From: an uncultured Chloroflexia bacterium
GTDB lineage: Bacteria > Chloroflexota > Limnocylindria > Limnocylindrales > CSP1-4
Assembly (NCBI GenBank): GCA_963776545.1
Contig: CAVZND010000014.1
Coordinates: forward strand, 13,740 to 77,739
Direction of reading: 5' to 3'
DNA: 64,000 bases
Shown piece after piece: positions 2,002 to 46,439 of this stretch (position 1 is the first letter of the stretch; every line of letters begins with the position of its first letter). A program made the translations under genes and the position numbers. Below the pieces are notes generated by a model. It ran no database searches and was not told the DNA's origin. It saw only the letters and a program-made list of their open reading frames with translations.

Positions 2002-4140
2002 CTAGCTCGTGGCCGCGGCAGGCTCGGGCTCGGTGGCCGCAGCGGGAGTGGGAGCAACGGGTGCCGGTCGTCCGAGCTGGATGCCGATCGAGTCGAGCCA
2101 GCGTCGGATGTTCCTGTAGATGGCCGGTGCCCCGAGTGGGACCGGCTCGTCCAGCTCCCAGTCGGACGGATGGAGGATGAACGGCTCGGTCTGGGGGCCA
2201 CCGAGGCCGCCGTGCGAGCCGATCAGCTCCTCGAACGCGGCGACCTCGCCGAGCTCCGGGTCGTACTGGCTGAGGAGCAGGATGTCCGGCGCGTGGGTCA
2301 TGGCGTCCTCGCGTCGCAGGCTCATGATCGTGTGCTCGCCGAAGAGCAGCGTGGGGTCGCGGTCCTCCACCCGGTCCTCGTCGAGGAAGCGGATGCCGTT
2401 GTTGTCGATCGCCATGGCGCCGTGCTGCGACGAGCGGACCATGACGAGCCCGACGCCCGGGTGGTCGACGAGCGCGCTGAGCAGGCCCGGATGCAGCTCG
2501 TCGAGCTCCTCCACGGTGAGCCGATGGTCGTAGCCGGTGAACCACACGAGGCCGAGATTGCCCGACCCGACGACCACGATCGCCGACTCGTCCGCCGGGG
2601 GCGGGATCTCGGTCGCGTCGAGGTCGACGACGCCGTCGGTGGTCCGCCCCGCCAGCGCGGCCCGGGCGACCGTGGGGCCGACGCCTTCGCTTCGGGTGAT
2701 CTCGGAGAGGAACGCGTTGACGAAGGTCGAGCCCTCGGCCTGGGTCTTGGTCTGGACCAGCGTCGCTCGACCGCTCATCAGGTCCCGGACGACCTCGCCC
2801 AGGCTCTGGCCGTAGCGCTGCTTGAACGTGGCGCCCAGGCTCTGGCCGTGATCCGAGAGGACGACGAAGCGATACGGCCGCGGCGCGTCCTGGGCGGCAT
2901 GGGCGAGCGTGCCGATCGCCCGGTCCACCCCGTCGAGGGCCTCGAACGACTCGACCCGCTCCGGTCCGCAGTGGTGGGCCAGCTCGTCGTAGTCGGTGAA
3001 ATCGGCGTAAATGACGTTCGTCCCCCGATACATCTCCTCGATGATCAGGGACACGTTGACGTCGCGTAACAGCACGTTGCTCGCGGCCCGCATCCCGGCG
3101 TACTTCATGCCGCGGTGCATCTGCGGGCGGATGCCCGAACGTCGCGTCCGACGTGCCTGGTAGCGCTCCTTGATGAACTCGCCGAGGAAGAGCGTGAACG
3201 AGCGCAGGTAGCCGCTCGGACTCAGGAAGAAGCCGAGGAAGGCCTTGCTGTCGCCGATGCCCTGCGACTCGTCCTTGATGGCGGCGGTCGTGAGATAGGC
3301 GCGGGTCGCGTCGCCTGTGACGAGGTTGCAGATGCTCGCGCCGTTGTTCGAGAGCAGGCCCTCGCCGTCGGAGATGCGTCGGACGATCTCGCCCGCGTCG
3401 TCTGGATTGCTCGACTGCATCAGGTGCTGCCGATCGCGTTCGTACCAGCGGAAGGCGGGGATCCCGTCGTTGTTGCCGTGGAGGATGCCCGCCTGGCTGG
3501 CCGAGGTCATCGACGGCAGGATCGCCTCCCAGCGCGACAGCTTGTGGCTGCCGTCCCGCACCCAGTCGGCCATCGTGTTGACCGAGCCGGCGCGCATCCG
3601 GCCGGCCAGGATCGGATGGGCCAGCCCGTCGATCTGGACGATGACCAGGCCGGGCTGGTCCGTCTTCGCCGCCGCTCGCTTGATGAGCAGGCTCTGGACC
3701 AGGAGCCCGTAGAACGAATCGCCACTGTCGACGCCCAGGATGGCGGTCAAGACCGTGTTGATGATGGCGAACACGAACGAGCCGACGAGGGCCGGCACGA
3801 ACCCGCCGATGTGGACCCCGGGCACCACGTTGGCCGCGATCACGAACACGAGCACCTGGAGGACCAGGACCGAGATCCCGGTCAGGACCAGCGATCGCGG
3901 CGCGACCAGTGCCAGAACGACCGGCCGGATGATGGCGTTGAACAGCGCCATGACGATGACGACGAGGACCCCGGCGCCGAACGTGTCAACAGTGATGCTG
4001 GGCAGGAGCAAACTCGTCAGCCAGAACGAGATCGCCGAGACGAGCAGGGTGACGACGAGGCGCTTGAAGAGCGCCCACGGGCCGCCGCGCCACTCCCAGA
4101 GCACGCGAAGCTGGGTCCGGTACAAGGCGAAGATGCTCAT
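2002..4140 (-). CDS. membrane protein with phage-holin-family (4-TM) N-terminal domain fused to an alkaline-phosphatase/type-I phosphodiesterase family domain
   Basis: 712 aa. N-terminal ~140 aa are a hydrophobic holin-like domain paralogous to 11964..12353. The remainder matches the nucleotide pyrophosphatase/AlkP superfamily. Confidence 0.75.
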   Translation of the reverse strand: MSIFALYRTQLRVLWEWRGGPWALFKRLVVTLLVSAISFWLTSLLLPSITVDTFGAGVLVVIVMALFNAIIRPVVLALVAPRSLVLTGISVLVLQVLVFVIAANVVPGVHIGGFVPALVGSFVFAIINTVLTAILGVDSGDSFYGLLVQSLLIKRAAAKTDQPGLVIVQIDGLAHPILAGRMRAGSVNTMADWVRDGSHKLSRWEAILPSMTSASQAGILHGNNDGIPAFRWYERDRQHLMQSSNPDDAGEIVRRISDGEGLLSNNGASICNLVTGDATRAYLTTAAIKDESQGIGDSKAFLGFFLSPSGYLRSFTLFLGEFIKERYQARRTRRSGIRPQMHRGMKYAGMRAASNVLLRDVNVSLIIEEMYRGTNVIYADFTDYDELAHHCGPERVESFEALDGVDRAIGTLAHAAQDAPRPYRFVVLSDHGQSLGATFKQRYGQSLGEVVRDLMSGRATLVQTKTQAEGSTFVNAFLSEITRSEGVGPTVARAALAGRTTDGVVDLDATEIPPPADESAIVVVGSGNLGLVWFTGYDHRLTVEELDELHPGLLSALVDHPGVGLVMVRSSQHGAMAIDNNGIRFLDEDRVEDRDPTLLFGEHTIMSLRREDAMTHAPDILLLSQYDPELGEVAAFEELIGSHGGLGGPQTEPFILHPSDWELDEPVPLGAPAIYRNIRRWLDSIGIQLGRPAPVAPTPAAATEPEPAAATS

Positions 4141-4142
4141 GG

Positions 4143-5504
4143 ATGCCCTTTCGCAACGCGCGGGTGACGACGAGCGCTCACGGTATCATCGCCGAGATGA
4201 GCGACCGAGCATTGCCCGGCGTCGAAGGCCCTCCGGCTTGTCCCTTCATCGCGTTCGAGGACGAGCGCGATGAGCGCTCGTCGAGTCCCGATCACCGCCA
4301 TCGCTGCTATGCCGAGGTTCGCCCGGCGCCCCGAGCGCTCGCGCACCAGGAGGCGTACTGCCTCTCGAGCGCCTTCCCGGTCTGCCCCACGTTCCAGGAC
4401 TGGGCACGTCGGGAGGCGGCCCAGGCGCGCTCGGCCGGTCGAGCCGTCGCGGCGCCACCGGCCATGGCGACGGCCGTCGATGAGGAACCGGAACCGGCCG
4501 CCGCGGCCGAACCCGACGAGCCGAAGGTGGCCGCGGGCCCGCCCCCGCCCGACGCGGCCGATGAGGTGGCGGCGCCCGAGGACGATGCCGACCCATGGGC
4601 CGCCCCGCCCCATGACGACGAGGAACCGGTCATCCATCGGAATCCGCCCCGCGACTGGGCCGCGCCGCCGCCATGGGCGACCAGCGGGGCCGCCGGCATG
4701 TCGACCGCGGGCGGCCAGGGCGGGGGTCGCCCGGACGACCAAGCGCCGGACTTCCTCGCCAGTCGTGACCCGGCACGCGGGCTCGCCGGCAGCGCCGCCG
4801 ATCGGCTGGCCGGCGGGACGCCAGCGTCCACACCCGCGTCGAAGGGCGCTTCGACCTCGCCCGCCGCGATGCCCTCGGATGAACTCGCCGGGCTGGTCGC
4901 CGGGGCGGCCGTCAGCAACGCCCGAGCGCGGACGTCGGAGCCGATCACCCGGCCGCCGAGCGGCGCGTATCCCACGACGACTGCGTCCGGCCGCCGGCCG
5001 ACCGTCAGCTCCACGCGCACGCGCGCGCAGCAGCACGACGGGCCGTCGTGGGAGAGCGCGAAGCGCTACGAGGCGTATCCGACCATCAAGACCCGGGCCG
5101 GCCTGCCCGGCATCCCGCGCATCGCGGTCCTGGCCGGCGCCCTTGGCATCGCGGCGCTGGCCCTGTTCTTCCTGCCCGCGCTGCTGGGCGTCGGTGGCGG
5201 CGGCAGCGGGTCGAGTGCTTCCCCGAGCCGGTCGGCGGCGGCGGCGACCGCGACGCCCGCGCCGACCCCGATCCCCGAGCCGACGGCACAGACCTACACG
5301 GTCAAGGCCGGCGACACGCTCCTCAAGATCGCCAAGAAGTTCGACGTGACCGTGGACGAGCTCCTGGCCGCGAACAAGGGCGCGATCAAGAACAAGGACC
5401 AGATCAAGGTGGGGCAGAAGCTCATCATCCCGGTGCCGACGCCGGACGAGGTGACCGACCCGTCTGCCGCCGCGCCCGAGGAGAGTCCGACGCCCGAGCC
5501 CTAA
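4143..5504 (+). CDS. LysM peptidoglycan-binding protein with Cys-rich N-terminus, Pro/Ala-rich linker and one TM segment
   Basis: C-terminal LysM (YTVKAGDTLLKIAKKFDVTVDELLAANK). True start may be the internal Met at 4197. Confidence 0.7.
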   Translation: MPFRNARVTTSAHGIIAEMSDRALPGVEGPPACPFIAFEDERDERSSSPDHRHRCYAEVRPAPRALAHQEAYCLSSAFPVCPTFQDWARREAAQARSAGRAVAAPPAMATAVDEEPEPAAAAEPDEPKVAAGPPPPDAADEVAAPEDDADPWAAPPHDDEEPVIHRNPPRDWAAPPPWATSGAAGMSTAGGQGGGRPDDQAPDFLASRDPARGLAGSAADRLAGGTPASTPASKGASTSPAAMPSDELAGLVAGAAVSNARARTSEPITRPPSGAYPTTTASGRRPTVSSTRTRAQQHDGPSWESAKRYEAYPTIKTRAGLPGIPRIAVLAGALGIAALALFFLPALLGVGGGGSGSSASPSRSAAAATATPAPTPIPEPTAQTYTVKAGDTLLKIAKKFDVTVDELLAANKGAIKNKDQIKVGQKLIIPVPTPDEVTDPSAAAPEESPTPEP

Positions 5505-5514
5505 GGCGCCGCGC

Positions 5515-5844
5515 CTAGCGGGGCGCGATGTTGATGGCCGTGATCTTGCCCGCCTCGACCCGGAAGGTCGCGTCGATGTGCTGGGTCGGGGCGCCCGGCC
5601 GGACCACGAGCAGATCCGCCTCGTAGGTATTGCCGGTGTCGCGGATCTCGCCCGGGATCATGCGCAGGCCGGAGTCGCCGCGCAGGAACCAGCCGCCGAC
5701 GCGCTCGACCCCGCGCAGCGTCTGCACGCTGTCACCGACGTGCACGCGCATCTCGGTCATCTCGTCCATCAGGGCCACCGCGCCTTCGCGGTCGCCTCCG
5801 TTGAGCTTCTCGAAGAAGTCTTCCATCGTCTCGACAGCACCCAT
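5515..5844 (-). CDS. SnoaL-like / NTF2-fold small protein
   Basis: ATG at 5844, ~110 aa. The longer upstream ORF extension is likely spurious. Confidence 0.5.
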   Translation of the reverse strand: MGAVETMEDFFEKLNGGDREGAVALMDEMTEMRVHVGDSVQTLRGVERVGGWFLRGDSGLRMIPGEIRDTGNTYEADLLVVRPGAPTQHIDATFRVEAGKITAINIAPR

Positions 5845-5851
5845 GGCCTGA

Positions 5852-6553
5852 GTGTACCGTCGGGCGCCCATGGACGCCGTCCAGCGATCGACCGACGAGC
5901 TGCGGGCGCGCCTGGCCGCCGCCTGGCCTCTGTTCGGGTTGACTCTGCGGACCGAGCGCCTGGTCCTGCGCCTGCCCACCGACGACGAGCTGCTCGACCT
6001 CATGGACCTCGCGCGGGCGGGGATCCACCCACCCGACGAGATGCCGTTCGGGGTCGCCTGGTCGACGCAGCCGAGCCCGGCTTTCGAACGGGGCTACCTC
6101 GCCTATCACTGGGGCAACCGGTCGGGCTGGTCGGCCGGCGATTGGGAGCTGGGCCTCGTCGCGTCGTTCGAGGGCACCCTGATCGGGATGCAGGGCATGC
6201 ACGCCCGCGACTTCGCGACTCGACGGACGGTCGGCACGGGGTCGTGGGTAGGCCAGGTGTTTCAGCGGCGCGGCTTCGGCAAGGAGATGCGGGCCGCCTT
6301 CCTGGCGCTCGCCTTCGACGGGCTCGGTGCCCAGCTGGCGGAGACCGAGGCGTTCCTCGACAACGCGGCCTCGAATGCGGTCTCGCGAGCCTTGGACTAC
6401 GAGGAGAACGGGTTCGGGTCGATCGCGCCGCAAGGCACGCCCCGCGAGACCCAGCGGTTCCGCATGACCGCCGAGCGGTGGCGCTCCCGTCCGCGCCCGG
6501 CGGTCACGATCGAGGGCCTCGAGGGCTGTCTCGAGCTCTTCGGGGTGGCCTAG
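5852..6553 (+). CDS. GNAT family N-acetyltransferase (RimJ/RimL-like)
   Basis: Acetyl-CoA binding motif QRRGFGKEM; 233 aa. Confidence 0.8.
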   Translation: MYRRAPMDAVQRSTDELRARLAAAWPLFGLTLRTERLVLRLPTDDELLDLMDLARAGIHPPDEMPFGVAWSTQPSPAFERGYLAYHWGNRSGWSAGDWELGLVASFEGTLIGMQGMHARDFATRRTVGTGSWVGQVFQRRGFGKEMRAAFLALAFDGLGAQLAETEAFLDNAASNAVSRALDYEENGFGSIAPQGTPRETQRFRMTAERWRSRPRPAVTIEGLEGCLELFGVA

Positions 6554-8760
6554 AAGCCGCCGCCGGCGCCACCTCCGCCACCGCCCGAGCCGCCACCGCC
6601 GAAGCCGCCGCCACCCCCACCGCCCGACGACGACGGCGAGTTCCCGATCGTGCCGAGCGCCGACATCATGCCGCCGATGTCGGGGATGGCCGAGTCGGAG
6701 AAGATGCTGCCGCCGCTCCCGCCGACACCGCCGGCGCCGACGAACGCGGACCCGTCCGACGTCCGGTACCAGGTCGGGAACCAGACGACGGAGGCGTTCG
6801 GGGCGGCCGCCTTGACGTCGTCGAGGCTGCGGCTCAGGACGCCTTCGATCTCGCCCTGGAGACCCAGCGCCGTGCCCCAGACGACGGCCTGGTCCGGCGT
6901 CTCGAGCCATTCGAGCCCGGCCTCGTCGACGACCTGCTGCATCGAGCGTGCCTGGGCCATCGTCTTCTCGAGCGTGCGTCGGTACGCGGCCAGCATCGCG
7001 CGGATCATGGAGCCGGGCATCGTGACGGCGGGCATGAACCGGGCGAACAGCACGATGACGATGCCACCGAGCAGGACCGCCCCGCCGATCAGCACGAGCC
7101 CGGAGATCGGGACGTTCCAGCCCACGACGAGCGCAACGACGCCGGCCACGATGGCGAGCACGCCGCGACCGGCCCAGCGAGTCGTGACCTTGCTCGGCGC
7201 CTCCCCGAACCAGCCGCGCTTGACGACGTGCTTCTCCAGCGCCTTGTCGAAGTCGGCCACGGACGACCCGAATTTGGGCAGGTCGTCGGGCTTGATGTAG
7301 CCCTCGTCCTCGCCGGCGCTGAGCGAGCGGAGCTCCTTGAGCGCGACCTCCTCGGCCGGTCCGATCGGCCGCCGCGCGTTCCTTGCCCGTTGCGCCTCCT
7401 CCATCTCATCGCCCTTGGCCGGGTCCACGTCGACCCCGACCTTGTGGCTCAGGCCGAGGAGCCCGGTCTCCTCGCGGAACGAAAGGAGCCCTCGGCTCGC
7501 GAGATCGAGCATCGCCGTGGTCAAGGCGCGACGCGACGTGCCACCGTCCATGACCATCGCCCCGGACGCCGCGGTCAGGTCGGGCGGCGGAGCCGGCATC
7601 AGGATCGAGGGGTCGTCGAGGTAGACCGGGTCCTTGCCGAAGCGCCGCCAGTTGATGAACGCCCAGCCGCTCAGGCCGAGGAACGCGATCGGCGCGCCGA
7701 CGAGCCCCAGGACCGCGTTCAACTGGCGCGCCCATTCGAGCGAGGCGGCGTGCTCCGGTGTCGCCGCCTCGTCGACCTTCCGGAGGGCCACCTCGAGGGC
7801 ACCGTCGAAGTCGGCGTTGCGCAGCAGCGGGACCATGTCGTTCTCGAAGATGGCCTGGCGTTCCGCATTGCTCAGGAAGGCCGCCTCGAACCCGGGCGCC
7901 GCGTACAGCTGGACCTGGCCGTGCTGGAGCGAGGGATCGATGTCGAAGAAGATCACCATGCCGTCGTTGAAGCCGGCCCGCCCGATGCCCCACTGGTCGA
8001 TGAGTGCCCGGGCGCGCGATTCGGTTTCGGACGTCTCGACGCCGTAGTCTGTCAGCTGCGTGTAGACCACGACCTCGGCACCGGTCCGCGCCTCGATGCC
8101 GTCGATGACGGACTCGGCCCTGACGATCGCGTCCGGGCTCAGGATGCCGGCGTTGTCGTAGACGGCCCGGCCATCGACGGGATCCGGGAACGGCGGGCCC
8201 GGCGACGGTTCGGGCGCACCCGGCGCCGACGACCCCGCCGCCACCTCGAATGTCGTTCGAAGGACATGGCCAAGGGCGACGAGGATGGCACCGTCGGTGT
8301 CGTCGGCCCGGAACAACGGCAGCATCTCGTCGGTGAAGATCGCCTGGCGCTCGTCGGACGAGAGGTAGGTCGAATCGAACCCCTTGCCGGCATACAGCTG
8401 GAGCTGTCCGTCTGATCGACCGTTGTCGAGTTCAAGCAGGATCACCAGCCCGTCGTCGATGCCGGCCCGTCCGATGCCCCACTCGTCCATCAGCGCGGCG
8501 GCGTCAGCTTCCGCTCCCTCAGTCGTGAGGTCGTCCCGACCCATCGCCTGCGTGTACAGGACGACCTCGACCCCGGTCTGCGCCTCGATGGCGTCGATGA
8601 TCTGCTCTGCCTGGGCGATGGTCTCCGGACGTGAGCACGCCGGCGTAGTCGTAGACCGCCTGGTCGTTGACGGGCTCCGGGTACGGTGGCCCGGGTGGCG
8701 GCGTCGTCGGGGCGGGGCTCGCGCCGAGGACCGACCCGATCGCGAGGAGCGCCCAGGCGA
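6550..8760 (-). CDS. secreted/membrane protein with two TPM (DUF477) domains + DUF2207 membrane domain and Gly-rich C-tail; apparent frameshift
   Basis: Signal peptide and first TPM domain are in one frame (ORF 8519..9526). The rest is in the 6550..8544 frame. The switch falls near 8625-8632 (…YAGVL|SPETIAQAEQ…). Confidence 0.6.
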   Translation of the reverse strand, partial: SPGRSSRSGRSSARAPPRRRRHPGHRTRSPSTTRRSTTTPACSRPETIAQAEQIIDAIEAQTGVEVVLYTQAMGRDDLTTEGAEADAAALMDEWGIGRAGIDDGLVILLELDNGRSDGQLQLYAGKGFDSTYLSSDERQAIFTDEMLPLFRADDTDGAILVALGHVLRTTFEVAAGSSAPGAPEPSPGPPFPDPVDGRAVYDNAGILSPDAIVRAESVIDGIEARTGAEVVVYTQLTDYGVETSETESRARALIDQWGIGRAGFNDGMVIFFDIDPSLQHGQVQLYAAPGFEAAFLSNAERQAIFENDMVPLLRNADFDGALEVALRKVDEAATPEHAASLEWARQLNAVLGLVGAPIAFLGLSGWAFINWRRFGKDPVYLDDPSILMPAPPPDLTAASGAMVMDGGTSRRALTTAMLDLASRGLLSFREETGLLGLSHKVGVDVDPAKGDEMEEAQRARNARRPIGPAEEVALKELRSLSAGEDEGYIKPDDLPKFGSSVADFDKALEKHVVKRGWFGEAPSKVTTRWAGRGVLAIVAGVVALVVGWNVPISGLVLIGGAVLLGGIVIVLFARFMPAVTMPGSMIRAMLAAYRRTLEKTMAQARSMQQVVDEAGLEWLETPDQAVVWGTALGLQGEIEGVLSRSLDDVKAAAPNASVVWFPTWYRTSDGSAFVGAGGVGGSGGSIFSDSAIPDIGGMMSALGTIGNSPSSSGGGGGGGFGGGGSGGGGGGAGGGF

Positions 8761-14712: not shown

Positions 14713-15150
14713 ATGAACCGAGGTCTCACCGTCGAGCAGCTCGACGGTCTTCTCGACGAGCAGCACCTCGCGACCCTTGCCACGTTCCGCCAGGACGGCA
14801 GCGTCCTCCAGTCCCCGCTCTGGTACGTCTGGGAGGACGGTGGCTTCACGCTCGCGATGGCCGCGACGGACGGCAAGCTCAAGCACATCGCGCGGGACCC
14901 GCGGGTCACGATCGTGGTCGCGGAGGATGCCCTGCCGTACCGCGGGTTCGAGGTCCGCGGGCTCGCCCAGCTGACGGATCGCCCATATCCACCCACCATC
15001 CGACGCATCGCCCGACGGTATGTCGGCGCGAAGGGGGAGTCCTTCTACGCGGACAGTCACGAGGGCGTCGTGGTCCGGGTCGAGCCGGGCGAGGCCCGCG
15101 GCTGGGATTTCCGCGACGATCTCGGGGCGATGGGGGTGTGGCACCCGTGA
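14713..15150 (+). CDS. pyridoxamine 5'-phosphate oxidase family protein (PPOX-class, likely F420-dependent)
   Basis: ATG at 14713, 145 aa. Convergent with the GNAT gene. Confidence 0.75.
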   Translation: MNRGLTVEQLDGLLDEQHLATLATFRQDGSVLQSPLWYVWEDGGFTLAMAATDGKLKHIARDPRVTIVVAEDALPYRGFEVRGLAQLTDRPYPPTIRRIARRYVGAKGESFYADSHEGVVVRVEPGEARGWDFRDDLGAMGVWHP

Positions 15151-33058: not shown

Positions 33059-34684
33059 ATGTCCTTCGATGGTCTCGGGCTGTCGCCCGAGCTCCTCAGC
33101 ACGGTCGCCAGACAGGGCTACACCGTGCCCACCCCCGTCCAGGCAGAAGCCATCCCGCTGGTCCTCGCCGGCCGCGACCTCATGGCCGGCGCGCAGACCG
33201 GCACCGGCAAGACGGCCGCGTTCGTGCTGCCGATGATGCAGCGGCTCCATGCCAGCGCCCGCGACGGTCGTCGCGGCGTTCGCGCGCTCATCCTCGCGCC
33301 GACCCGCGAACTCGCCCTCCAGATCGCCGAGAGTGTCCGTACCTACGGCGCGGGGAGACCCATCCGCTCGGCCGCCATCTATGGCGGCGTCGGCTTCGAT
33401 CCGCAGGTCCGGGCCCTGCGTGGTGGGGCCGAGATCGTCATCGCGACGCCCGGTCGCCTGCTCGACCACGTCGGGCAGCGGACCATCGACCTGTCCCAGG
33501 TGGAGATCCTCGTCCTCGACGAGGCCGACCGAATGCTCGACATGGGCTTCATCCGCGACATCCGCAAGATCCTCGCGATCCTGCCCGCGCAGCGCCAGAA
33601 CCTCCTCTTCTCGGCGACCTTCTCCGATGACATCCGACGGCTGGCAGGCGGTCTGCTCCACGACCCGGCGACCGTCCAGGTCACGCCCCGCAACACCCCG
33701 TCCGAGCTGGTCAGCCAGGTCGTCCACCCGGTCGATCGCGAGCGCAAGCGCGAGCTGCTCAGCCACCTCGTGAAGTCCGGCGTCATCTACCAGGCGCTCG
33801 TCTTCACCCGGACGAAGCACGGCGCGAACCGCCTCGCCACGCAGCTCGAGCACGACGGCATCCCGGCCACCGCGATCCACGGCAACAAGAGCCAGCCCCA
33901 ACGGGTTCGCGCGCTGGCCGACTTCAAGGCGAACAAGTACGCGATCCTCGTCGCGACCGAGGTCGCCGCGCGCGGCCTCGACATCGACTCGCTGCCGCAC
34001 GTCGTCAACTTCGAGTTGCCGATGGTCGCCGAGGACTACGTCCACCGGATCGGCCGGACAGGTCGTGCCGGCGTCGACGGCCGGGCCGTCTCGCTGGTCT
34101 GCGTTGACGAAGCGAAGCTCCTGTACGACATCGAGCGCGTCCTCGGCCGTTCCATCCCGTCCGAGGTTGTCCCGGGCTTCGAGCCCGATCCCCGCATCCG
34201 ACCCGAGGCGATCCTGCGCGGCGGCCTAGGTGGCGCCCGACCGGGTGTCGGCCCCCGCCAACGACCCGTCGGCGCGCCCCGACATGCCGGTGCGGGGTCG
34301 CCGCAGCGAGCGATCAGCCGCCCGGGCGGCGCTCGACCGCACGCCGCGGCGCGGTCGTTCGGTTCGACTCCGGCGGGAGTGCCGAACGCCCATCGCGGGG
34401 GCGGGCATGCGTCCGGCCCGAACCGCGGTGGCCACGCCCCGGCGCGGCGACTCGAAGGCGGCCGCCCGTCAGGCGGTCATCCCTCGCAGCCCGGGCAGTG
34501 GCTCGGCCAGCGCCCGAACCAGGGTGGTCGACCCGCCCAGGGCGGGCCGAACGATCACGGCCCGCGTTCGAGCAACGGCCCGCGTCCGAACCACGGGCCG
34601 CGCCCGAACGGACGTCCCGAGGGCGCTCCATCGGCGCTGCCGGGCGAGCGCCTGGCACGCGTCGGCGGCCGAGACGAACGCTAG
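33059..34684 (+). CDS. DEAD-box ATP-dependent RNA helicase with Arg/Gly-rich C-terminal tail
   Basis: Q-motif, [15 protein letters not shown] and HRIGRTGR motifs. ~196-nt leader upstream. Confidence 0.9.
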
Positions 34685-34851: not shown

Positions 34852-37800
34852 ATGCGAATCGGGGCGTGCGTTCTTGTTGTGCTCGCCTCCGCGACGCTGA
34901 GCCTGCCGCCAGCGGCCGCCGCCGCGGCGACGCTCCCCGCTGGCTTCAGTGACGACCCCGTGGTCAGCGTGGGCTCCCCGACGGACCTCGCCTTCACGCC
35001 CGATGGGCGGATGCTGATCACGACCCAACCGGGCCGACTACGCGTCGTCGCCGACGGGACGCTCCTGCCGACGGCCGCCCTCGACCTCGTCGCCGCGGGC
35101 ACTGTCTGCTCGAACTCGGAGCGCGGCCTGCTTGGAGTGGCCGTGGATCCGCACTTCACCGCGAACGGCTACATCTACCTCTTCCACACATTCAAGAAGT
35201 TCGGCGTGTGCGATGTGAACACGTCGCAGGCTCCCGTCCACCGCGTCTCACGCTTCACTCTGTCACCGTCGCCGGCGAACACGGTCGATCTGGGGAGCGA
35301 ACTCGTGCTCATCGACAACATCCCCTCCCCGGCGGGTTACCACAACGCCGGTGATCTGGCGATCGCTGCTGACGGCTTCCTGTATGTCAGCGTCGGTGAC
35401 GGCGGCTGCCAGTTGGACGACGCGAGTCGATGCTCCACCCAGAACGACAACGCGCGCTCCCTCGATACGTTGCTTGGCAAGATCCTCCGCATCGGCCTCG
35501 ACGGATCCGTCCCGACCACGAACCCCTACGCTGGACTAAGCGGCGCCCGTCGTTGCGGCGATCCGGCCGGTGTGCCGAACGGGACGGGTCCGTGCATCGA
35601 AACGTTCGCGTCCGGGCTACGGAACCCATTCCGATTCGCCTTTCGGCCAGGAACTAGTGAATTCCACATCAATGACGTGGGCCAGGCGACCTGGGAGGAG
35701 ATCGACCTTGGTCGCGCGGGCGCCGACTACGGCTGGAATGTCCGCGAGGGCGACTGCGCCGTGGGCTCGACCTCGGACTGCGGAGCCCAGCCGGCAGGCA
35801 TGACGAACCCGATCCACGCTTACGGACACGCAGACGGCTGCCGATCGATCACCGGCGGTGCGTTCGTGCCGGTCGGGGTCTGGCCCTCTGCGTTCGATAA
35901 CGCGTACCTGTTCAGCGATTACATCTGCGGCAAGATCTTCCGCCTGGTGCCGAACGCATCGGGCGGCTTCGACCAGGTGGAGTTCGCCACAGGTCTCGGC
36001 GGATCGAGTGCGGTCGCCATGACGTTCGGCCCGTACGGGAATACCCAGGCGCTCTACTACACCACATACGCTGGCGGTGGCTCGGTGAGGCGGATCGCTG
36101 CGGTCACGAGCACGAATAGCCTCCCCATCGCGAACGCCGGGACGGCCGGGACGGCGAGCGGGGTGCCGGTGGCCATCACCCTGACCGGTTCGGACGTCGA
36201 GACCTGCGACCTGTCGTTCACCGCCCCGGCCACGACCGTCGCCGGCGGGACACTCGGCGGGCTCGATCCACGCGGCTGCGTCTCGGGCAGTCCGAACACC
36301 GACTCGGCGTCGGTCACGTACACCCCGCCAGGCGGCGGCTTCGCCGGTCCCGACAGCTTCACCTTCACGGTCGACGACGGGACGGACCCGTCCACACCAA
36401 AGACGATCTCGATCACGGTCGGCGGGTCGGCCGGTACCGCCACGTTCGGCGCGGCCGCCGACGCCCAGGTCAAATCGAGCAGCGCCAACACCAACTACGG
36501 CACGCTCGCCACGATCCGGACCCGCGACGGGACCGGCTCCTCGTCCAGCCCGATCTACCGGAGTTATCTGCAGTTCAACGTGGCCGGCGTGTCGGGCACG
36601 GTCAGCGACGTCAAGCTGCGCCTGTTCGTGACCGACCCGAGCCCGCACCTCCAGCAGGTCTTCGCGGTCACCCCGGACACCTGGACCGAGTCGGGACCCG
36701 GCGGCATCACCTACAACGCGACCCCGGCGATCGACACCCCGGCGAGCCCGCTCGCGAGCGCACCCGTGCCGACGACTGGCTGGGTCGAGATCGACCTGCC
36801 GAACAGTGCCGTGAGCGCCAACGGCCCGCTCAGCTTCGCGCTCAAGAGCGCCGGCGGCAACAGCGCCATCTTCAGCTCCAGGGAGGGCGCCAACCGACCC
36901 CAGCTCGTGGTCACCTACGCCGGGGGGACTGCCAACTCGCCCCCCACGGCGACCGGCGGGTCTCCGACGGGGACGACCGAGGACAAGGCGCTGACCCTGA
37001 CCATCGGGGGCTCCGATCAGGAAACGTGCGACCTGATCTTCAACGTGCCAGCGACGACGACCCATGGGACGATCGGCTCGCCGACGCCTGTGGGCTGCAC
37101 GTCAGGCAGCCCGAATGCTGACACCGCCAGCGTGACGTACACGCCGGCCGCCAACTACAGCGGCCCCGACAGTTTCGGCTACACGGTGACCGACAGCGCT
37201 GGCGGGACGTCCACGCCGTTCACTGTCAACGTCACCGTCAGTCCGGTCAACGACGTCCCCATCGCGAACGCCGGGACGGCCGGGACGGCGAGCGGGGTGC
37301 CGGTGGCCATCACCCTGACCGGTTCGGACGTCGAGACCTGCGACCTGTCGTTCACCGCCCCGGCCACGACCGTCGCCGGCGGGACACTCGGCGGGCTCGA
37401 TCCACGCGGCTGCGTCTCGGGCAGTCCGAACACCGACTCGGCGTCGGTCACGTACACCCCGCCAGGCGGCGGCTTCGCCGGTCCCGACAGCTTCACCTTC
37501 ACGGTCGACGACGGGACGGACCCGTCCACACCAAAGACGATCTCGATCACGGTCGGCGGGTCGGCCGGTACCGCCACGTTCGGCGCGGCCGCCGACGCCC
37601 AGGTCAAATCGAGCAGCGCCAACACCAACTACGGCACGCTCGCCACGATCCGGACCCGCGACGGGACCGGCTCCTCGTCCAGCCCGATCTACCGGAGTTA
37701 TCTGCAGTTCAACGTGGCCGGCGTGTCGGGCACGGTCAGCGACGTCAAGCTGCGCCTGTTCGTGACCGACCCGAGCCCGCACCTCCAGCAGGTCTTCGCG

Positions 37801-38061
37801 GTCACCCCGGACACCTGGACCGAGTCGGGACCCGGCGGCATCACCTACAACGCGACCCCGGCGATCGACACCCCGGCGAGCCCGCTCGCGAGCGCACCCG
37901 TGCCGACGACTGGCTGGGTCGAGATCGACCTGCCGAACAGTGCCGTGAGCGCCAACGGCCCGCTCAGCTTCGCGCTCAAGAGCGCCGGCGGCAACAGCGC
38001 CATCTTCAGCTCCAGGGAGGGCGCCAACCGACCCCAGCTCGTGGTCACCTACGGGCCTTGA
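34852..38061 (+). CDS. secreted multidomain protein: PQQ-dependent sugar dehydrogenase (GSDH-like) beta-propeller + Ig-like/cadherin-like units + DNRLRE-like beta-sandwich, duplicated module
   Basis: Signal peptide MRIGACVLVVLASATLSLPPAAAAAA. GSDH motifs (GLLGVAVDP, LRNPFRFAF). The 3' half holds two identical 792-bp modules. Confidence 0.75.
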   Translation: MRIGACVLVVLASATLSLPPAAAAAATLPAGFSDDPVVSVGSPTDLAFTPDGRMLITTQPGRLRVVADGTLLPTAALDLVAAGTVCSNSERGLLGVAVDPHFTANGYIYLFHTFKKFGVCDVNTSQAPVHRVSRFTLSPSPANTVDLGSELVLIDNIPSPAGYHNAGDLAIAADGFLYVSVGDGGCQLDDASRCSTQNDNARSLDTLLGKILRIGLDGSVPTTNPYAGLSGARRCGDPAGVPNGTGPCIETFASGLRNPFRFAFRPGTSEFHINDVGQATWEEIDLGRAGADYGWNVREGDCAVGSTSDCGAQPAGMTNPIHAYGHADGCRSITGGAFVPVGVWPSAFDNAYLFSDYICGKIFRLVPNASGGFDQVEFATGLGGSSAVAMTFGPYGNTQALYYTTYAGGGSVRRIAAVTSTNSLPIANAGTAGTASGVPVAITLTGSDVETCDLSFTAPATTVAGGTLGGLDPRGCVSGSPNTDSASVTYTPPGGGFAGPDSFTFTVDDGTDPSTPKTISITVGGSAGTATFGAAADAQVKSSSANTNYGTLATIRTRDGTGSSSSPIYRSYLQFNVAGVSGTVSDVKLRLFVTDPSPHLQQVFAVTPDTWTESGPGGITYNATPAIDTPASPLASAPVPTTGWVEIDLPNSAVSANGPLSFALKSAGGNSAIFSSREGANRPQLVVTYAGGTANSPPTATGGSPTGTTEDKALTLTIGGSDQETCDLIFNVPATTTHGTIGSPTPVGCTSGSPNADTASVTYTPAANYSGPDSFGYTVTDSAGGTSTPFTVNVTVSPVNDVPIANAGTAGTASGVPVAITLTGSDVETCDLSFTAPATTVAGGTLGGLDPRGCVSGSPNTDSASVTYTPPGGGFAGPDSFTFTVDDGTDPSTPKTISITVGGSAGTATFGAAADAQVKSSSANTNYGTLATIRTRDGTGSSSSPIYRSYLQFNVAGVSGTVSDVKLRLFVTDPSPHLQQVFAVTPDTWTESGPGGITYNATPAIDTPASPLASAPVPTTGWVEIDLPNSAVSANGPLSFALKSAGGNSAIFSSREGANRPQLVVTYGP
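36123..36914. repeat. direct repeat copy 1 (792 bp), identical to 37257..38048
   Basis: Nucleotide-identical over the full length. Encodes the Ig-like + DNRLRE-like module. Confidence 0.9.
37257..38048. repeat. direct repeat copy 2 (792 bp)
   Basis: Identical to 36123..36914, separated by a 342-bp diverged Ig-like unit. Confidence 0.9.
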
Positions 38062-38119
38062 CGCGCCCACTGGAGATCGGCTGGTTGGCCCGCTCCCTCA
38101 CGGGCCTGCCGCCTCGTGA

Positions 38120-39448
38120 CTACGGCGCCCGCGCGGCGATGTCCCGGAGGTACGCGTCGATCTCCGGGACGGAGCGCAGGGCCCGTTCGAAATAGCCGTT
38201 GACCGCACTGAGCGCGGCGTCCTGGATGCCGCTCATCTCGTCCGATCGGTCGGCATGCGACTCGCGCGCCTCGAGCGATTTCCGTAGGTCGAGCAGATGG
38301 CCGACCATCTTCGCCTCCTCCGGGCCATCGAGCGCCTGGATGGCCGACATGATCAAGCCGTCGACCTGCGAGACCATCGTGTGGGTGGCAAAGGTGTCGC
38401 CCGATGACGCGGCATCGTCCAGCGTCCGGATCAACGCGGAGACCTGATACAGCGCCGTGACCGGCTCGTCGAACAGCTCGCGGATGTAGGCGGCCTCGCG
38501 GTACTTGCCGTTCATCCGGAAGACGTTGTACATCCGTCGCGCGGCCTTGCCGAAGTTCGGCTCCTTGACGGTGTACTTCCAGACCTCGTGCTCGAGGGTG
38601 TCGACGTAGTCGTCGACCGAATCTGCCGACATCTCCTTGACGAGCTTCGAGAAGAGCGGGATCGAATCGGTCTCGAGGTAGACCTCCTGGTAGTAGGGGT
38701 CGAGGAAGCCGTCGAGCGGCACGATCGTCCCGTCTGGCGCCTCCCATGTCGGATCGAGGACGTTGCTGGCGTTTGCCAACTGGCCACGGGTCTTGTCGGC
38801 GATGACCCAGTCGAGCTTGCACCAGCCTGGGTCGTGCGACGCGTCCTCCCAGGTGTAGACCCGCACTGAGCCGTCGGGCAGCGTGACCTCCATCTGCCCG
38901 GCCTTGACCTCCTCCATGGTCCAGGACATCCCGGACCCGGCTCCGACCGGGCTGCCACCCTTCGTCGCGGCGACCTGGTGCGTCCCGAACTTGACCTCCC
39001 AAAGCCGGTGGGTCGGTCCGGAGGCCGTGGCGAGCGCCTTCTCACGCATGAGATCGGCCAGGATGGCGCACGCCTCCTCGCGCGTGTCTGCCCGGATGTG
39101 GACCCGCTCGAAGAAGTCGCAGTCGGCCGGATAGGCGTTGATCTTGCTCTGCGCGGCCGATCCGGAGATCGACAACGCCGTCAGGACCTGCGGCGGCCGG
39201 TCCTCGAAGCCCACGATCGTCGCCATCTCGCGGAACCGGGCGAGATCCTCCGGCAGGAAGTCGAGCATCGAGACCCGATGGCCGTAGACGCCGGTGTCGA
39301 CGTCGACGACGAGCTCGCCACCGCTCGCCTCCGTCTCCATCGCGGCGACCCACTCCGCCGCCTCGCGCTCGTCGAGCTCGACGCCCAGCCGCGTGGCCGA
39401 CGCGACCACCCGTGCGATCGCTTCATCCGATGAAGTCCCGGTTGCCAT
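38120..39448 (-). CDS. hypothetical cytoplasmic protein (442 aa), no recognisable family
   Basis: Single long ORF with unbiased composition. Stands alone between convergent neighbours. Confidence 0.55.
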   Translation of the reverse strand: MATGTSSDEAIARVVASATRLGVELDEREAAEWVAAMETEASGGELVVDVDTGVYGHRVSMLDFLPEDLARFREMATIVGFEDRPPQVLTALSISGSAAQSKINAYPADCDFFERVHIRADTREEACAILADLMREKALATASGPTHRLWEVKFGTHQVAATKGGSPVGAGSGMSWTMEEVKAGQMEVTLPDGSVRVYTWEDASHDPGWCKLDWVIADKTRGQLANASNVLDPTWEAPDGTIVPLDGFLDPYYQEVYLETDSIPLFSKLVKEMSADSVDDYVDTLEHEVWKYTVKEPNFGKAARRMYNVFRMNGKYREAAYIRELFDEPVTALYQVSALIRTLDDAASSGDTFATHTMVSQVDGLIMSAIQALDGPEEAKMVGHLLDLRKSLEARESHADRSDEMSGIQDAALSAVNGYFERALRSVPEIDAYLRDIAARAP

Positions 39449-46363: not shown

Positions 46364-46439
46364 GCGGGAGTAGCTCAGTTGGCAGAGCGGCAGCCTTCCA
46401 AGCTGCATGTCGCGAGTTCGAACCTCGTCTCCCGCTCCA
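46364..46439 (+). tRNA. tRNA-Gly (anticodon UCC), CCA encoded
   Basis: Cloverleaf reconstructed by hand. Acceptor GCGGGAG/CTCCCGC, D-arm GCTC-AGTTGGCA-GAGC, anticodon stem GCAGC/GCTGC, loop CTTCCAA, T-loop TTCGAAC, discriminator U. Confidence 0.9.

Follow-up and report, generated by a model that had tools for sequence, protein, structure and literature searches.

A gene lying within a 64-kb stretch of DNA from an uncultured Chloroflexia bacterium (contig CAVZND010000014.1; the whole stretch is termed the window, and positions are numbered from its first letter) contains two nucleotide-identical copies of a module, termed A, separated by a unique spacer, termed B. We consider it likely that this gene encodes a secreted pyrroloquinoline quinone (PQQ) sugar dehydrogenase bearing a tail of immunoglobulin (Ig)-like domains and carbohydrate-binding modules (CBMs) of family CBM96, that the A-B-A arrangement of the tail is old, and that its A copies are kept identical by recombination, that is, by concerted evolution. 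The overall layout is X-A-B-A-GP-stop, where X denotes the N-terminal propeller and GP the last two residues (Table 1).

When the sequence was compared with itself base by base after a shift of 1134 bp, the longest uninterrupted identity between the copies spanned 798 bp, the extents listed for A1 and A2 in Table 1. A preliminary description of this DNA, made from its letters alone, had recognized two nucleotide-identical intragenic copies; these are real, and extend 6 bp beyond the 792 bp it reported. The copies are spaced 1134 bp from start to start, and both are in frame within one intact open reading frame (ORF). They constitute the sole direct repeat of at least 60 nt in the window, so that chance is of no concern. 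A tblastn search with X, A and B revealed no donor paralogue in the window beyond the gene itself.

Evidence for concerted evolution of the A copies

We compared the identity of A within and between genomes and constructed a distance matrix of 11 sequences, using related loci designated L001 to L004 and L032 to L034. The gene is syntenic across L001-L004 and L032; L002 and L003 lack B, carry a single A, and have a DEAD-box helicase gene upstream and a 442-aa ORF downstream. Identity between A copies is 98.5-100% inside one genome but falls to 92-96% between lineages, and in the distance matrix the copies cluster by genome rather than by position. The comparison with L004, which has an intact ORF of 1069 aa and the same A spacing of 1134 bp, is the most informative. 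Both of its A copies differ from both window copies at the same 62 positions (7.8%). Between these two loci B is 91.9% identical in nucleotide sequence, with a synonymous divergence (dS) of 0.20, X is 93.2% identical (dS 0.21), and A has a dS of 0.15; in L001, B is 99.7% identical to that of the window. Since the window and L004 share the spacing, the orthologous B and the same junctions, the A-B-A arrangement predates their divergence. A duplication older than a dS of about 0.2 should by now have produced some 60 differences between copies evolving independently, and none occurs in either locus. The A copies of L032 show 10 mismatches and two indels, scattered and each private to one copy; these may be sequencing noise, in a contig with obvious frameshift errors.

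Perfect identity of this kind had been read in the preliminary description as the mark of a very recent duplication, that is, a tandem copying of one B-A or A-B unit upon which no substitution has yet fallen. Zero differences over 798 bp and the existence of single-copy orthologues are both consistent with such an event, but B copies nothing in the gene, sharing only 54% amino acid identity with the Ig part of A, and L004, L032 and L034, which lie 6-9% from the window, all share its A-B-A order and have a B orthologous to its own. Together with the 62 differences carried alike by both L004 copies, these observations make a recent origin highly improbable. The accompanying proposal of homologous recombination acting on the copies is supported: greater identity within than between genomes is what homogenization by such recombination classically leaves.

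We reason that homologous recombination between A1 and A2 may continue to overwrite one copy with the other, by intragenic gene conversion, by cycles of unequal crossing-over, or by both. No partial conversion tract is visible between the two copies, because they are fully identical. Recombination of A1 with A2 would also delete B-A in frame and yield a single-module protein of 683-690 aa. Three database proteins have this form (P0002, P0003 and P0004; 683-690 aa; 84, 81 and 76% amino acid identity; layout X-A-stop, ending in -GP or -GA; L002 and L003 are among their loci), which could have arisen either by deletion of B-A or as an old allele class; L033 is equally far from the window as L002, yet carries B-A.

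The gene appears mosaic when the window (34930-36120) is compared with L002 (2100-3357) and L003 (2356-3608). Nucleotide identity is only 80-82% for X (dS about 0.63), as compared with 89-91% for A (dS 0.16-0.20) and 86-90% for the genes on either side. This pattern suggests two old classes of propeller allele, or allelic replacement by recombination.

The repeat junctions in other assemblies

The preliminary description had raised, as an alternative, expansion of the repeat during assembly. We considered this in two forms: a single A expanded by the assembler, or diverged copies homogenized by the assembler or polisher. A bias shared through a common pipeline is conceivable, as L001, L004 and L032 bear Flye-style 'contig_N' names and L004 derives from the MFD Nanopore pipeline, in which metagenome-assembled genomes (MAGs) are produced from Nanopore reads by metaFlye assembly and Medaka polishing (PMC12313526). 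The presence of B, however, requires genuine reads across the A-to-B and B-to-A junctions, and such junctions are present in a further five assemblies, made from other samples, of which one is a Nanopore/metaFlye product and two are short contigs from the Joint Genome Institute (JGI), L034 having both junctions and L033 the B-to-A junction. In the window and in L004 alike the ORF runs unbroken through the two junctions, and expansion would not yield a B that is in frame, unique and orthologously conserved. Assemblies of the same type, moreover, keep apart cassettes that are 94-96% identical (in L031, described below) and the copies of L032 at 98.5%. A repeat of 0.8 kb is also far below typical Nanopore read length and below the minimum overlap used by Flye, which likewise makes homogenization by polishing unlikely, and we give the artefact explanation scarcely any credence.

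Table 1. Features of the gene, by position in the window, and related loci that carry repeat junctions, with nucleotide (nt) identity to the window. AF2, AlphaFold2; sGDH, soluble glucose dehydrogenase; ENA, European Nucleotide Archive.
Feature	Position or source	Strand	Description and basis
Whole gene	34852..38061, stop codon included	+	Multidomain protein of 1069 aa, predicted to be secreted; uninterrupted ORF
Signal peptide	34852..34929	+	Predicted Sec signal, MRIGACVLVVLASATLSLPPAAAAAA; hydrophobic core then Ala run, seen in the sequence
X	34930..36120	+	Six-bladed beta-propeller, soluble glucose/sorbosone (PQQ) dehydrogenase family; PF07995, phmmer, AF2, Foldseek
His164 codon	35341..35343	+	Aligned with catalytic base His144 of A. 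calcoaceticus sGDH; phmmer alignment to 8re0/1c9u
Arg257-Asn258 codons	35620..35625	+	GLRNP motif, aligned with sGDH Arg228-Asn229; phmmer alignment
A1	36122..36919	+	First repeat copy; Big_9 Ig at about 36121-36426, CBM96/DNRLRE beta-sandwich at 36436-36918
B	36920..37255	+	Unique 336-bp spacer with extra Big_9 Ig-like domain; missing from single-copy orthologues
A2	37256..38053	+	Second repeat copy (Ig + CBM96), then GP-stop; C-terminal -GP as in L002 and L003
L001	ENA ERZ25039502 contig_277220		98.8% nt; A-B-A; A copies differ by a 2-bp indel only
L004	CAVVDC010000009.1, MAG 'uncultured Chloroflexia bacterium MFD02242.bin.2.318'		About 91% nt; A copies 100% identical over 801 bp
L032	ENA ERZ25039524 contig_55375		93.8% nt; A copies 98.5% identical
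L034	JGI 1252-bp contig		About 92% nt; last 111 bp of A1, B, A2, stop; 2 differences in 111 bp
L033	JGI 2379-bp contig		About 85.5% nt; begins within B, then B-A-stop; only B-to-A junction visible

The protein and its propeller domain

The ATG at 34852 (MRIGAC...) is the start codon also in the L003 and L004 orthologues. Cleavage of the predicted signal peptide would fall near the AAA run, and residues 3-13 are helical, at low confidence, in the structural model described below; the secreted nature proposed in the preliminary description is thus supported by a feature read from the sequence. A lipoprotein reading of 'IGAC' (residues 3-6) was dropped, as this Cys stands ahead of the hydrophobic core, and a lipobox Cys cannot sit as near the N-terminus as residue 6. 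At the other end the protein closes with VVTYGP*, as compared with VVTFGP in P0002 and VVTFAAGP in P0003, and the window protein sequence shows neither an anchor to the cell wall nor a sorting motif, and no transmembrane segment at its C-terminus. A promoter scan found no sigma-70-like promoter, and terminator-like matches were no better than background. Two long antisense ORFs, 35617-37065 and 37102-38070 (both on the minus strand), were judged to be high-GC artefacts, mirroring the repeat and otherwise unsupported.

Profile hidden Markov model (HMM) and structural comparisons concur in placing X in the soluble glucose/sorbosone dehydrogenase family. The Pfam model PF07995 (GSDH) matched residues 42-327 in one stretch, with 126.1 bits against a cutoff of 25 (E=2.5e-36), and phmmer searches of the PDB returned propeller matches to 2ism, 1c9u, 3a9g and 2g8s. 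An AF2 model, built from 112 aligned sequences, had a predicted local distance difference test (pLDDT) score above 90 over most of residues 30-470; nearly all 10-residue blocks of the propeller exceeded 90, with a minimum of 82. When this model was compared with the PDB using Foldseek, the top matches were members of the sGDH and aldose sugar dehydrogenase (Asd) family (2ism, 7cdy, 7cgz, 3a9g and 2g8s), with target-normalized TM scores (TMt) of 0.83-0.87. The match to 2ism had E=3.6e-19 and a TMt of 0.86; the group of 1c9u followed at about 0.65, and HHIP came next.

Conservation accords with an enzymatic role. The column of His164 is occupied by His in 77 of 80 homologues, that of Arg257 by Arg in 78 and that of Asn258 by Asn in 79, which amounts to conservation of 96% or more for each of the three across the subfamily. 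The ratio of nonsynonymous to synonymous divergence (dN/dS) across the propeller is 0.09, denoting strong purifying selection.

Four solved proteins provide the closest comparisons: Thermus thermophilus TTHA0570 (2ISM), Escherichia coli Asd/YliI (2G8S), the Pyrobaculum enzyme (3A9G) and Acinetobacter calcoaceticus sGDH (1C9U). With these the window protein shares the six-bladed propeller and PF07995, the catalytic His and Arg-Asn pair, and export, which here is predicted; TMt is 0.84-0.87 to 2ISM, 3A9G and 2G8S and 0.65 to 1C9U. Unlike the solved PQQ enzymes, to which it is 19-26% identical, its propeller is larger (about 397 aa) and carries Cys-rich insertions, and those enzymes are without the C-terminal Ig/CBM tail.

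The Ig-like and CBM96 tail

The tail is non-catalytic and ordered Ig-CBM96 / Ig / Ig-CBM96. Its CBM part was matched in two stretches both by PF24517 (CBM96; 173.4 bits against a cutoff of 26, E=4.4e-51, profile positions 2-164 of 164) and by NF033679 (DNRLRE_dom; 144.2 bits against a cutoff of 34, E=3.6e-42, profile positions 1-164 of 164), and its Ig part in three stretches both by PF17963 (Big_9; 77 bits against a cutoff of 23.6, E=2.2e-21) and by NF012211 (tandem-95; 93.9 bits against a cutoff of 90). The best stretches were residues 529-689 for CBM96, 536-688 for DNRLRE and 695-795, within B, for Big_9. In the AF2 model the second CBM96 copy had a pLDDT of about 90 and the first of about 80; the Ig domains were modelled poorly. 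The propeller, Ig-like and DNRLRE assignments made in the preliminary description thus hold under HMM searches of the kind that it recommended (here PF07995, NF033679 and Big_9); AF2 and Foldseek likewise support the propeller and the CBM96/DNRLRE part.

Fold comparison of the CBM part with Foldseek identified 8wab, a chondroitin-sulfate-binding CBM (E=9.6e-8, TMt 0.73), and 7vbo, annotated 'Alginate binding domain CBM' (E=2.9e-5, TMt 0.63); these two were found by fold comparison only, a phmmer search of the PDB with module A having returned nothing at an E-value of 0.01 or better. The latter structure is TM6-N4 of the alginate lyase Dp0100, the alginate-binding founder of CBM96, in which binding needs a basic groove comprising Lys10, Lys22, Lys25, Lys27, Lys31, Arg36 and Tyr159 (PMC9971899). 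Module A resembles TM6-N4 and 8WAB in its beta-sandwich fold, and matches PF24517 and NF033679 well over their cutoffs; it differs in sequence, at 16-24% identity, and in being joined to an oxidoreductase rather than a lyase.

A compositional bias was also noted in module A (36121-36918, and its counterparts in L002 and L003). In the window, G+C content at third codon positions (GC3) is 93% in A, 82% in X and 87.5% in B; A thus stands above the 82-88% found in the propeller, and this bias is independent of duplication. GC-biased gene conversion was dropped as an explanation, since in L002 and L003, where A occurs once, its GC3 is higher still, at 96-97%.

Relatives, domain combinations and copy number

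The window protein itself had no exact counterpart on record. A protein search returned 5264 significant matches among the scored candidates, and domain layouts were taken for the best 120. GSDH and CBM96 (PF07995 and PF24517) occur together in 41 of these 120, mostly with PKD spacers, in Thermomicrobiales, Vicinamibacterales and many metagenome sources; the combination, which the preliminary description had called unusual, is therefore a recurrent one, and the source records already name such proteins 'PQQ-dependent sugar dehydrogenase' or 'DNRLRE domain-containing protein'. Members of this database subfamily, in which a PQQ sugar dehydrogenase is joined to PKD or Big_9 domains and to DNRLRE/CBM96 (for example in Thermomicrobiales, Myxococcota and Vicinamibacterales), have propellers 50-66% identical to that of the window protein and share its plan of propeller, Ig-like spacer and CBM96. 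They differ in that most have PKD spacers where the window protein has Big_9. Outside the small clade comprising the window, L001, L004, L032 and L034 we did not see a doubled, nucleotide-identical Ig-CBM96 module split by a further Big_9; a scan of metagenome contigs with the full protein yielded only distant propeller relatives (at most 55% identity) and no more A-B-A loci.

Module copy number, which the preliminary description had suggested following among orthologues, does vary. A single A is found in L002, L003 and P0004, and a gene for another secreted protein of related bacteria, at L031 (ENA ERZ25039565 contig_10647, about 4050-8090), bears in tandem three or more units, some 1.13 kb long, that each consist of a B-like Big_9, a second Big_9 and a CBM96. 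These units are 94-96% identical to one another and about 74% identical to the B-A unit of the window. The gene that contains them is unrelated, multidomain and ridden with frameshifts, and has weak matches to Metallophos and Laminin_G_3 at its N-terminus. Given these tandem [Big_9-Big_9-CBM96] units, the A-B-A of the window can be described as 1.7 units of a 1134-bp cassette.

Neighbouring genes and other features of the window

Downstream, the 442-aa ORF (38120-39448, minus strand) is convergent with the dehydrogenase gene and is kept in L001-L004 and L032, but not in L033; it has no match in Pfam, NCBIfam or PADLOC. Between the window and L001, 37 of 67 mismatches cluster at 38174-38774, in the 3' part of this ORF, a pattern suggestive of a hypervariable segment or of a patch brought in by recombination. 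In L003 the dehydrogenase gene and the 442-aa ORF are separated by an additional gene of 222 aa (L003 4453-5121, minus strand), which has no Pfam match and does not occur in the window. Upstream, the DEAD-box helicase (DEAD and Helicase_C domains; 33062-34684, plus strand) has a long low-complexity C-terminal tail rich in Gly, Pro, Arg and Asn, within which an 18-bp tandem repeat occurs in 2.9 copies (34557-34609). Elsewhere in the window, ARAGORN called a 90-nt tRNA-Val(cac) at 14880-14969 (plus strand) with its anticodon at position 28; no Rfam tRNA reached the gathering score there, and the call is probably a false positive. A tRNA-Gly(tcc) at 46364-46439 was called by both ARAGORN and Rfam.

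Discussion

From its sequence and modelled fold, the window protein is probably an aldose/sugar dehydrogenase of the sGDH/Asd type, dependent on PQQ and exported by the Sec route. In the arrangement that we envisage, the CBM96 modules, spaced by the Ig domains, would keep the enzyme attached to a polysaccharide, on or near which the propeller would oxidize reducing-end or free sugars to lactones, and having a pair of CBMs would give greater avidity; we put forward the ligand, the substrate and the gain in avidity provisionally. The polysaccharide is possibly acidic, as suggested by the two solved CBM relatives, which bind alginate and chondroitin sulfate.

The same domains could serve a surface adhesin or structural protein, in which a non-catalytic propeller binds a ligand, as in HHIP, and the repeats provide rapid length or antigenic variation, as in the repeat adhesins of Gram-positive bacteria. 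HHIP does have the same fold, Big_9 and tandem-95 repeats are typical of large adhesins, relatives vary in module copy number, and a model of the BapA/LapF adhesin C-terminus gave a weak match (25 bits). That match falls far under its cutoff of 180 bits, however, and the catalytic His and Arg-Asn pair are conserved in a propeller under strong purifying selection, in a protein that lacks the anchor, C-terminal membrane segment or sorting motif of a surface-attached product and has two modules only, with no long array. An adhesive or structural role accordingly seems to us unlikely.

Identical tandem repeats are familiar from the surface proteins alpha C/Rib of group B Streptococcus, Esp of Enterococcus and Bap of Staphylococcus. 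The window gene resembles these in its Ig-like intragenic units, in identity probably kept by recombination, and in the gain and loss of units in frame. It is unlike them in having two copies split by a unique domain, in encoding an enzyme rather than an anchored adhesin, and in residing in an uncultured, soil, Chloroflexia-like host where there is no sign of immune or phage pressure. The fungal AA12 pyranose dehydrogenase CcPDH of Coprinopsis cinerea (PMC4332668, PMC6881789) offers a functional analogue built on a similar plan, in which a secreted PQQ propeller is linked to a CBM; it is eukaryotic, with a cytochrome b domain and a cellulose-binding CBM1, and without a repeated module.

Several considerations weigh against interpreting the gene as an old, recombination-homogenized dehydrogenase. 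On the enzymatic side, the score against TIGR03606 (non_repeat_PQQ) was 64 bits where the subfamily threshold is 434.55, so the protein is in the broad PF07995 family and outside that curated subfamily; phmmer left the last two propeller blades, as well as the C-terminal PQQ-binding residues, unaligned to the solved enzymes; binding of PQQ is accordingly predicted from three residues and the fold; and HHIP, which both phmmer and Foldseek place in the same fold, is non-enzymatic. As regards the tail, the CBM part is less constrained than the propeller (dN/dS 0.56 as compared with 0.09), and DNRLRE domains are mostly without an assigned function (PMC9971899). As regards the repeat, gene conversion and cycles of unequal crossing-over would leave the same pattern here, and four of the five A-B-A assemblies, the window included, may share one sequencing project and pipeline. 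Long reads across the repeat, called for in the preliminary description, are in effect available for the relatives through the Nanopore-based MAG and not for the window itself, whose two-copy state is taken from its assembly; some cells might carry more copies. With these points taken together, an old A-B-A homogenized by recombination within a secreted PQQ sugar dehydrogenase is still the interpretation that we hold to be likely.

A more far-reaching proposal is that the Ig-Ig-CBM96 cassette is a mobile, recombination-proficient block swapped between unrelated secreted enzymes of soil Chloroflexia-like bacteria, here the PQQ dehydrogenase and in L031 the protein with a metallophosphatase/Laminin_G-like N-terminus, its nucleotide identity being selected for rapid, reversible switching among isoforms with one, two or multiple CBMs. 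We regard this as doubtful; if true, the cassette would act as a copy-number 'rheostat' setting the tightness with which an extracellular oxidoreductase attaches to its polysaccharide. It would then recall the phase-variable repeat adhesins, though its setting would be an environmental, free-living enzyme.

Concerted evolution is here a known phenomenon in a known protein family, a clean but ordinary case that does not overturn current understanding. For genome scans the lesson is that intragenic repeats with perfect identity give no date for their duplication; here the reading was reversed once relatives were compared. These analyses document concerted evolution together with variation in module copy number in an oxidoreductase, probably secreted and targeted to carbohydrate, from an uncultured lineage of soil bacteria, and they identify a reusable Ig-Ig-CBM96 cassette. 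Fusions of PQQ propellers to CBM96 form a large family of which, to our knowledge, no member has been characterized biochemically, and the clade described here offers natural variants with one and with two CBMs in which the contribution of avidity could be compared.

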